From Escherichia coli O157:H7 (GTDB taxonomy: Bacteria > Pseudomonadota > Gammaproteobacteria > Enterobacterales > Enterobacteriaceae), in NCBI RefSeq assembly GCF_013167455.1, contig NZ_CP038328.1: a stretch of DNA of 64,000 bases; one strand, 5' to 3'. The notes beneath the pieces were generated by a model that saw only the letters and a list, made by a program, of their open reading frames with translations, did no database searches and was not told the DNA's origin. Position 1 is the stretch's first letter. Every line of letters starts with the position of its first letter. The translations under genes and the position numbers were made by a program. Below, piece by piece: positions 60,289 to 60,373 of this stretch.

Positions 60289-60373
60289 GCCGGATGCGGC
60301 GTAAACGCCTTATCCGGCCTACACATGCGTCCCCGTAGGTCGGATAAGACGCGCCAGCGTCGCATCCGACATT
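60289..60373. repeat. two REP elements (BIME-like) between hypF and norW
   Basis: tgccggatgcggcgtaaacgccttatccggcctac and gtaggtcggataagacgcgccagcgtcgcatccgacat. Confidence 0.75.

Follow-up and report, generated by a model that had tools for sequence, protein, structure and literature searches.

REP elements of the Y and Z2 types at three intergenic sites of Escherichia coli O157:H7

Three intergenic gaps in a 64 000-nt stretch of E. coli O157:H7 DNA (NCBI RefSeq assembly GCF_013167455.1, contig NZ_CP038328.1; hereafter the window) carry REP elements. The window is ~99.85% identical to strain PV15-279, CRISPR array aside (122-nt difference). We took the gene layout from the RefSeq annotation of PV15-279 and K-12 and checked it against the stop and start codons in the window; the RefSeq K-12 record used for annotation contains no repeat_region features. 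At site 1, hypF (+ strand, stop codon 60262-60264) and norW (- strand, stop codon 60392-60394) converge on a 127-nt gap, and the surrounding 901 nt recur at 100% identity in many E. coli O157:H7 chromosomes. At site 2, ygcQ (+, stop codon 4117-4119) and ygcP (-, stop codon 4267-4269) likewise converge, here on a gap of 147 nt. Site 3 is internal to the cysJIH operon, where 73 nt separate the cysI stop codon (10649-10651) from the cysH ATG (10725). According to the annotation map, all four intact REP units in the window lie outside coding sequences. The O157:H7 annotation also records a frameshift in ygcS and an internal stop in ygcQ (window ~1169-4119); because of the latter, the REP cluster of site 2 follows a gene that is a pseudogene in the O157:H7 lineage. 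An earlier note on this DNA had claimed REP palindromes at these three gaps, and the claim is borne out: its coordinates nearly coincide with ours and are essentially exact at site 3, and all six gene names that it gave (ygcQ, ygcP, cysI, cysH, hypF, and norW) agree with the annotation of PV15-279 and K-12.

Site 1 holds two intact units. The Y-type REP (60288-60322, - strand) appears on the + strand as TGCCGGATGCGGCGTAAACGCCTTATCCGGCCTAC ('iREP') and reads GTAGGCCGGATAAGGCGTTTACGCCGCATCCGGCA on the - strand. It agrees at 31/32 positions with the y REP crystallised by Messing 2012, matches the Y sequence of Nunvar 2010, scores E 1.9e-9 in a search with a hidden Markov model (HMM) built from literature sequences only, and is predicted to form a hairpin of -20.9/-21.3 kcal/mol (z about -5). 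It is joined tail to tail to its partner by a 12-nt linker, ACATGCGTCCCC (60323-60334), which lies between CTAC and GTAG in the position of the BIME-2 'S' linker and holds no IHF consensus; a similar linker, ACATGCGCTCCCC, was found again in multi-unit alleles. The partner is a Z2-type REP (60335-60371, + strand), GTAGGTCGGATAAGACGCGCCAGCGTCGCATCCGACA, whose upper stem and loop, ACGCGCCAGCGTCGCATC, are identical to those of the Nunvar 2010 Z2 (literature-only HMM E 1.8e-6; predicted hairpin -21.3 kcal/mol, z -5.9). From there to the norW stop codon runs a head-side flank, TTTTAGGCACAGTAGCCCAC (60372-60391); when intergenic regions are compared between strains, it equals the inter-unit linker of those with two to three units between hypF and norW.

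The other two sites differ in make-up. The only intact unit of site 2 is a Z2-type REP (4164-4200, + strand), GTAGGCCTGATAAGACGTGTTAAGCGTCGCATCAGGC, with a loop one base longer, a tail motif without mismatches, an HMM E of 4.2e-5 and a predicted hairpin of -19.7 kcal/mol (z -5.6). It is accompanied by two internally deleted Y-like units on the - strand. The first (4125-4144), TGCCGGATG plus ATCCTGCCTAC, retains head and tail, lacks the centre, and gives weak partial HMM matches only. The second (4207-4230), TGTCGGATGTGGCGTG plus CGGCCTAC, has two mismatches in its head motif and has lost its centre, and stands head to head with the Z2 unit across a 6-nt linker, GCTGAA. Each is found in the same deleted form in further E. 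coli strains. Site 3 consists of a single Z2-type REP (10668-10704, + strand), GTAGGCCTGATAAGACGCGTGAGCGTCGCATCAGGCA, which points the same way as the cysJIH transcript; its GTAG starts 16 nt past the cysI stop codon, and its stem ends at 10703, 21 nt before the cysH ATG. This unit too has a tail motif free of mismatches, with an HMM E of 6.1e-7 and a predicted hairpin of -21.9 kcal/mol (z -5.4). The description 'REP/BIME clusters' given earlier for all three sites needs two small corrections: site 2 is a cluster, but one of a single intact REP with two deleted remnants, and BIME in the strict sense of a Y/Z pair fits site 1 alone, site 3 being a solitary unit.

We assign the three sites to the E. 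coli REP (palindromic unit) family, in its Y and Z2 types, as ordinary members, and regard this assignment as practically certain. The tail motif CGYCTTATCMGGCCTAC (17 nt, ≤3 mismatches) occurs four times in the window against 0.33 expected, a count reached in 0/100 shuffles, and the REP head motif occurs 13 times against 3.5 expected. The HMM was built from three literature sequences only, namely the Y and Z2 sequences of Nunvar 2010 (Table 1, the K-12 sequences flanking the RAYT gene yafM) and the crystallised y REP of Messing 2012. Across the window it finds exactly four intact units (E 1.9e-9 to 4.2e-5), the next match standing at E 0.2. The units are 35-38 nt long, all carry GTAGG (4/4), and share one predicted fold: an unpaired GUAG foot leads into a lower stem of 7 bp, which a 2x2 mismatch separates from an upper stem of 4-5 bp with a loop of 4-5 nt. 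The mismatch is an internal loop of AA opposite GC in every predicted fold of the GTAG strand. Fold energies are -19.7 to -21.9 kcal/mol for the GTAG strands and -17.6 to -21.9 kcal/mol (z -4.9 to -6.0) over both strands. A direct pair count over 12 units found 95.7% of stem cells paired, and where the sub-types differ, at two positions, the changes (C-G/U-A and G-C/U-A) are compensatory; since MAFFT misregistered the upper stems of Y against Z2, the HMM and this count were used in place of a covariance model. Queried against 5,425 E. coli genomes, the site-1 sequence has a median of at least 27-29 matching places per genome among the matches listed, and is therefore a dispersed repeat; compared as 28-mers, the particular loops of sites 2 and 3 are almost unique.

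These properties agree with the REP types Y and Z2 as summarised in Ton-Hoang 2012 (PMC3333891) after Stern 1984, Gilson 1984, and Bachellier 1994: length, GTAG foot, two-base mismatch, extragenic position, high copy number, and near-identical sequence are shared. Departures from the published Z2 are small. The outer stem of the site-1 Z2 is GTCGGAT...ATCCGAC, not GCCTGAT...ATCAGGC, with the changes compensated, and at sites 2 and 3 the Z2 units deviate in their loops by 1-2 bases. The sub-terminal hairpins of IS200/IS605 elements likewise have a conserved 5' tetranucleotide beside them, and a Y1 HUH enzyme recognises them in single-stranded form. Unlike those elements, REPs carry no transposase of their own; TnpA-REP/RAYT is encoded by a single-copy chromosomal gene elsewhere, outside the window. 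The gene map of the window likewise shows no tnpA-REP/RAYT gene (yafM) of the kind that BIMEs flank in a REPtron; a REPtron has been reported for O157:H7 elsewhere in the chromosome. A separate candidate, ERIC/IRU, was rejected, as the window has 0 matches to the ERIC core sequence used, at ≤3 mismatches. REP/BIME elements of this kind are already known and belong to the textbook; PMC4550694 gives some 355 annotated REP elements for K-12. The earlier reading of these sites as standard enterobacterial REP elements is accordingly supported by the match to published Y and Z2 sequences and by the defining anatomy. Both comparisons proposed with it, a scan with a REP consensus and a survey of strains, were carried out: the first is the literature-only HMM search with its four units, and the second covers presence across 5,426 E. 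coli genomes (below).

Further elements of the window were noted in passing. In the hydN-hypF gap, the hairpin at positions 57945-57972 (GCCGGATGCGACG-CTGT-CGTGTCCGGC, -22 kcal/mol) resembles a REP: its head motif is perfect, although GTAG and CTTATC are missing. K-12 Term-seq data place a 3' end 28 nt before the hypF start codon (about window position 57984), ~12 nt past this hairpin, which may be a decayed REP that works as an attenuator or processing stop between these two genes. Positions 32150-32184, beyond the rpoS terminator, hold a decayed Z2-like remnant, GCCTGGATAAGACACGTCAGCGTCCTACCCGGCA (HMM E 0.001-0.3), with no fold (z -0.5) and no GTAG. Neither is counted among the REPs here, because both lack GTAG. 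No family in Rfam 15 matches the REPs; its only match in the window is the sok antitoxin RNA at 11582-11738 (105 bits, E 7e-23), which adjoins an annotated gene of the Hok/Gef family, located between cysH and cas3. Compared with that of PV15-279, the type I-E CRISPR array (about 20721-20990), by the cas3-cas2 operon, is longer by two repeat-spacer units (122 nt).

Only at site 1 do a y unit and a z2 unit stand inverted, CTAC facing GTAG, across the 12-nt linker. By its sequence, this is a BIME-2 building block (a Y/Z2 inverted pair with a short linker), and we call it BIME-2-like, following the BIME classes and REP definitions summarised in Ton-Hoang 2012 (PMC3333891). The order Y, short linker, Z2 is that of BIME-2, and tandem arrangements of two to three units occupy the locus in other E. 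coli, in E. albertii, and in Escherichia sp. E1V33. Classical BIME-2 elements are tandem arrays, whereas the window and K-12 have one pair at hypF-norW; a further difference from BIME-2 is that the internal Y units are degenerate in the hypF-norW arrays of other strains (e.g. GCTGGATGCGACATGAACGCAGTATGTGACCAAC). It is scarcely conceivable that site 1 is instead a BIME-1 or RIB-RIP element with IHF binding as its main role, since what it shares with BIME-1 is being a single inverted REP pair, but its linker of 12 nt is not the long L motif, the Y unit is partnered by a Z2, no Z1-type unit occurs in the window by the Z1 consensus used, and the IHF consensus WATCAANNNNTTR is absent from all three intergenic regions.

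A second reading, that the hairpins are locus-specific terminators or attenuators which resemble REPs by chance, is very improbable. It would account for the stable folds, for the location of the sites where genes end (in two cases where convergent genes meet), and for a short TTTT that follows the site-1 pair on the + strand; yet no terminator-like match overlaps a REP at any of the three sites, and no REP has a U-tract. Nor would it explain why each genome has tens of nearly identical copies scattered through it, or why the units match the published Y and Z2 nearly base for base, and chance resemblance is excluded by the tail-motif count (four against 0.33 expected). As an identity, terminators are refuted by the family match together with the absent terminator hits; termination as a function of these REPs is possible.

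The origin and the roles of such units can be proposed from the literature. REPs would be non-autonomous DNA whose single-stranded hairpins are recognised by the REP-associated Y1 transposase TnpA(REP)/RAYT (yafM). TnpA(REP) needs GTAG and the stem mismatch, cuts at CT in the inverted unit and in the linker, and can recombine BIMEs in vitro (Ton-Hoang 2012, PMC3333891). Changes in unit number could then arise by TnpA(REP) cleavage and strand exchange at CT, or by plain recombination or slippage between repeats. At the RNA level, Dar and Sorek 2018 reported that Rho-dependent transcripts end at stable hairpins without a U-tract, many of them REPs, to which PNPase and RNase II trim back. Given that work and the lack of a terminator consensus at the three sites, a barrier to 3' exonucleases is the most likely RNA-level role. 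A promoter consensus was likewise absent from all three sites. When transcribed, the hairpins would block 3'-5' exonucleases (PNPase, RNase II); the steady-state 3' ends of the hypF, norW, ygcQ, and ygcP mRNAs would be fixed and stabilised by them after Rho-dependent termination further downstream. Predicted folds allow the hypF and norW mRNAs each to form either two hairpins of -21 kcal/mol or one composite of -57 to -59 kcal/mol. Within the cysJIH operon, where no promoter consensus was found between cysI and cysH, the site-3 hairpin would give the cysJI segment upstream of it more protection than cysH; we found no literature linking cysJIH with REP. Translation-coupled down-regulation by REP has been reported for stem-stop distances <16 nt, and because the stems near hypF, norW, and cysI lie 20-24 nt from the respective stop codons, these REPs are beyond its range. 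We infer an mRNA-stabiliser role at these loci from this literature.

The K-12 Term-seq tables searched (Adams 2021) speak against a function here, since none of these REPs has a listed 3' end shortly after it. The only 3' end associated with cysI lies within that gene (about window position 10629), 22 nt before the stop codon and ~97 nt upstream of the cysH ATG. It falls ~40 nt upstream of the REP and not at its 3' foot, and the exonuclease-barrier model does not explain it. As anaerobic or NO-induced genes, hypF and norW were probably poorly expressed in the Term-seq data sets. As for DNA topology, gyrase is reported to cleave BIME-2 elements with elevated frequency and to prefer y units, and the Y/Z2 pair between two convergent operons would be a plausible preferential gyrase site; the gyrase Topo-seq supplements searched mention none of these genes.

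In a comparison of 5,426 complete E. coli genomes, the cysI-cysH REP is essentially fixed (5419/5426 genomes), and the ygcQ-ygcP cluster is present at ≥80% coverage in 4787/5426 (about 88%). The hypF-norW junction is polymorphic. Its one-pair allele, that of the window, is matched over ≥80% of the query by 3053 genomes, a frequency that, like the others for this junction, is approximate because the BLAST search with the two-unit allele joins pieces and so mixes one-unit with multi-unit genomes. A BIME-less allele with a 77-nt spacer occurs in 685/5,426 genomes (12.6%). Examples fetched from the remaining classes were arrays in 5/5 cases, four of them with two units (spacer 221-225 nt) and one with three (324 nt). 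Intergenic lengths over the alleles are thus 77, 127, 221-225, and 324 nt, and successive Z2 units in the arrays lie 94-98 nt apart, a repeat unit of ~98 nt. The BIME-less spacer retains only the left half of the Y unit and carries another GC hairpin (CCCTCGCCC-TTT-GGGCGAGGG). In this allele, HypF is four codons (12 nt) shorter with a changed C-terminus, as in E. coli B19695 (positions 425-501 of the fetched locus, equivalent to window 60240-60391). With about 13% of E. coli genomes lacking it, the hypF-norW BIME is dispensable.

Site 2 provides an example of insertion into a REP. The Z2 REP of E. coli DETEC-P666 is interrupted precisely in its loop (about window position 4184) by an IS3-family element of ~1.43 kb (about 524-1956 of the fetched locus), with TCAA duplicated on both sides. 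REP-specific insertion is documented for IS1397, and by analogy the target choice of the DETEC-P666 insertion is like that of IS1397. The view of REPs as hotspots of insertion and recombination, put forward in the earlier note, is illustrated by this element in the ygcQ-ygcP REP loop and by the 0-3 units at hypF-norW.

We also examined the hypF-norW junction in species-representative genomes, using NorW as the query. The Y/Z2 arrangement occurs there in E. whittamii (one unit), E. albertii (three units), Escherichia sp. E1V33 (three units), and a divergent E. coli. Inverted REP pairs of the host's own class occupy the junction in Salmonella enterica subsp. arizonae, Citrobacter youngae, and the Citrobacter sp. 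strains NCU1, Awk4, and R56. These pairs resemble site 1 in junction, order, and orientation (inverted unit, short linker, GTAGG unit), but their units belong to the REP class proper to each host (…CGCCATCCGGC). In some Citrobacter, a GC hairpin flanked by A and T runs occurs besides or in place of the REP pair. In Citrobacter spp. and Intestinirhabdus, a hairpin with A and T runs, AAAAAGCCCCGGGACTGGCGGGGCAAGAAAAA, lies beside hypF and looks like a two-way intrinsic terminator; some of these genomes have a single REP on the norW side and others none.

Because outgroup species carry REP pairs at this junction, the BIME-bearing state is ancestral and the BIME-less E. coli allele derived. Gilson and colleagues are said to have described, in 1987, species-specific REPs at homologous sites. 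We put forward, as a tentative idea that is itself rather doubtful, that the hypF-norW pair descends from a single ancient insertion predating the split of Escherichia, Salmonella, and Citrobacter, with its units converted repeatedly to the REP class of the host. The alternative is that each lineage independently re-colonised the hypF-norW gap. If the single ancient insertion were true, it would point to selection for a hairpin pair at a convergent junction, as a two-way protector of 3' ends or as a gyrase site, and the BIME-less 13% of E. coli would have replaced the pair with another GC hairpin.

The reading that best withstands these comparisons, other than the one we prefer, accepts the units as true REPs and takes them for neutral selfish DNA, leftovers of RAYT activity tolerated in gene-poor gaps, which here would affect neither the stability of mRNA nor the topology of DNA. 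We consider it possible, though on balance unlikely. A variable unit number at hypF-norW, with the BIME missing in 685/5,426 genomes, is what neutrality would allow, but the retention of the cysI-cysH REP in 5419/5426 genomes is not readily expected of it. The internal deletion of two of the three ygcQ-ygcP units and the decayed remnant after rpoS also speak for neutrality; a REP pair with maintained stems at the hypF-norW junction of E. albertii, E. whittamii, Salmonella, and several Citrobacter speaks against it. The absence of 3' ends at these REPs from the K-12 Term-seq tables is likewise consistent with neutrality; against it stands the general evidence that REPs protect 3' ends and bind gyrase.

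Ordinary REPs with a probable part in protecting 3' ends remain our preferred reading of the three sites. REP/BIME elements have been described since 1984, and these copies matter little in themselves; only the polymorphism of 0-3 units and the deep conservation of the hypF-norW pair are mildly noteworthy. For annotation, these stretches should be masked or labelled as repeats, and IS elements and rearrangements are to be expected at them. Within E. coli, the hypF-norW spacer can serve as a length-polymorphic marker (0-3 units). Across species, a REP pair that persists at one convergent junction offers a small example for studying how REPs are maintained and homogenised.
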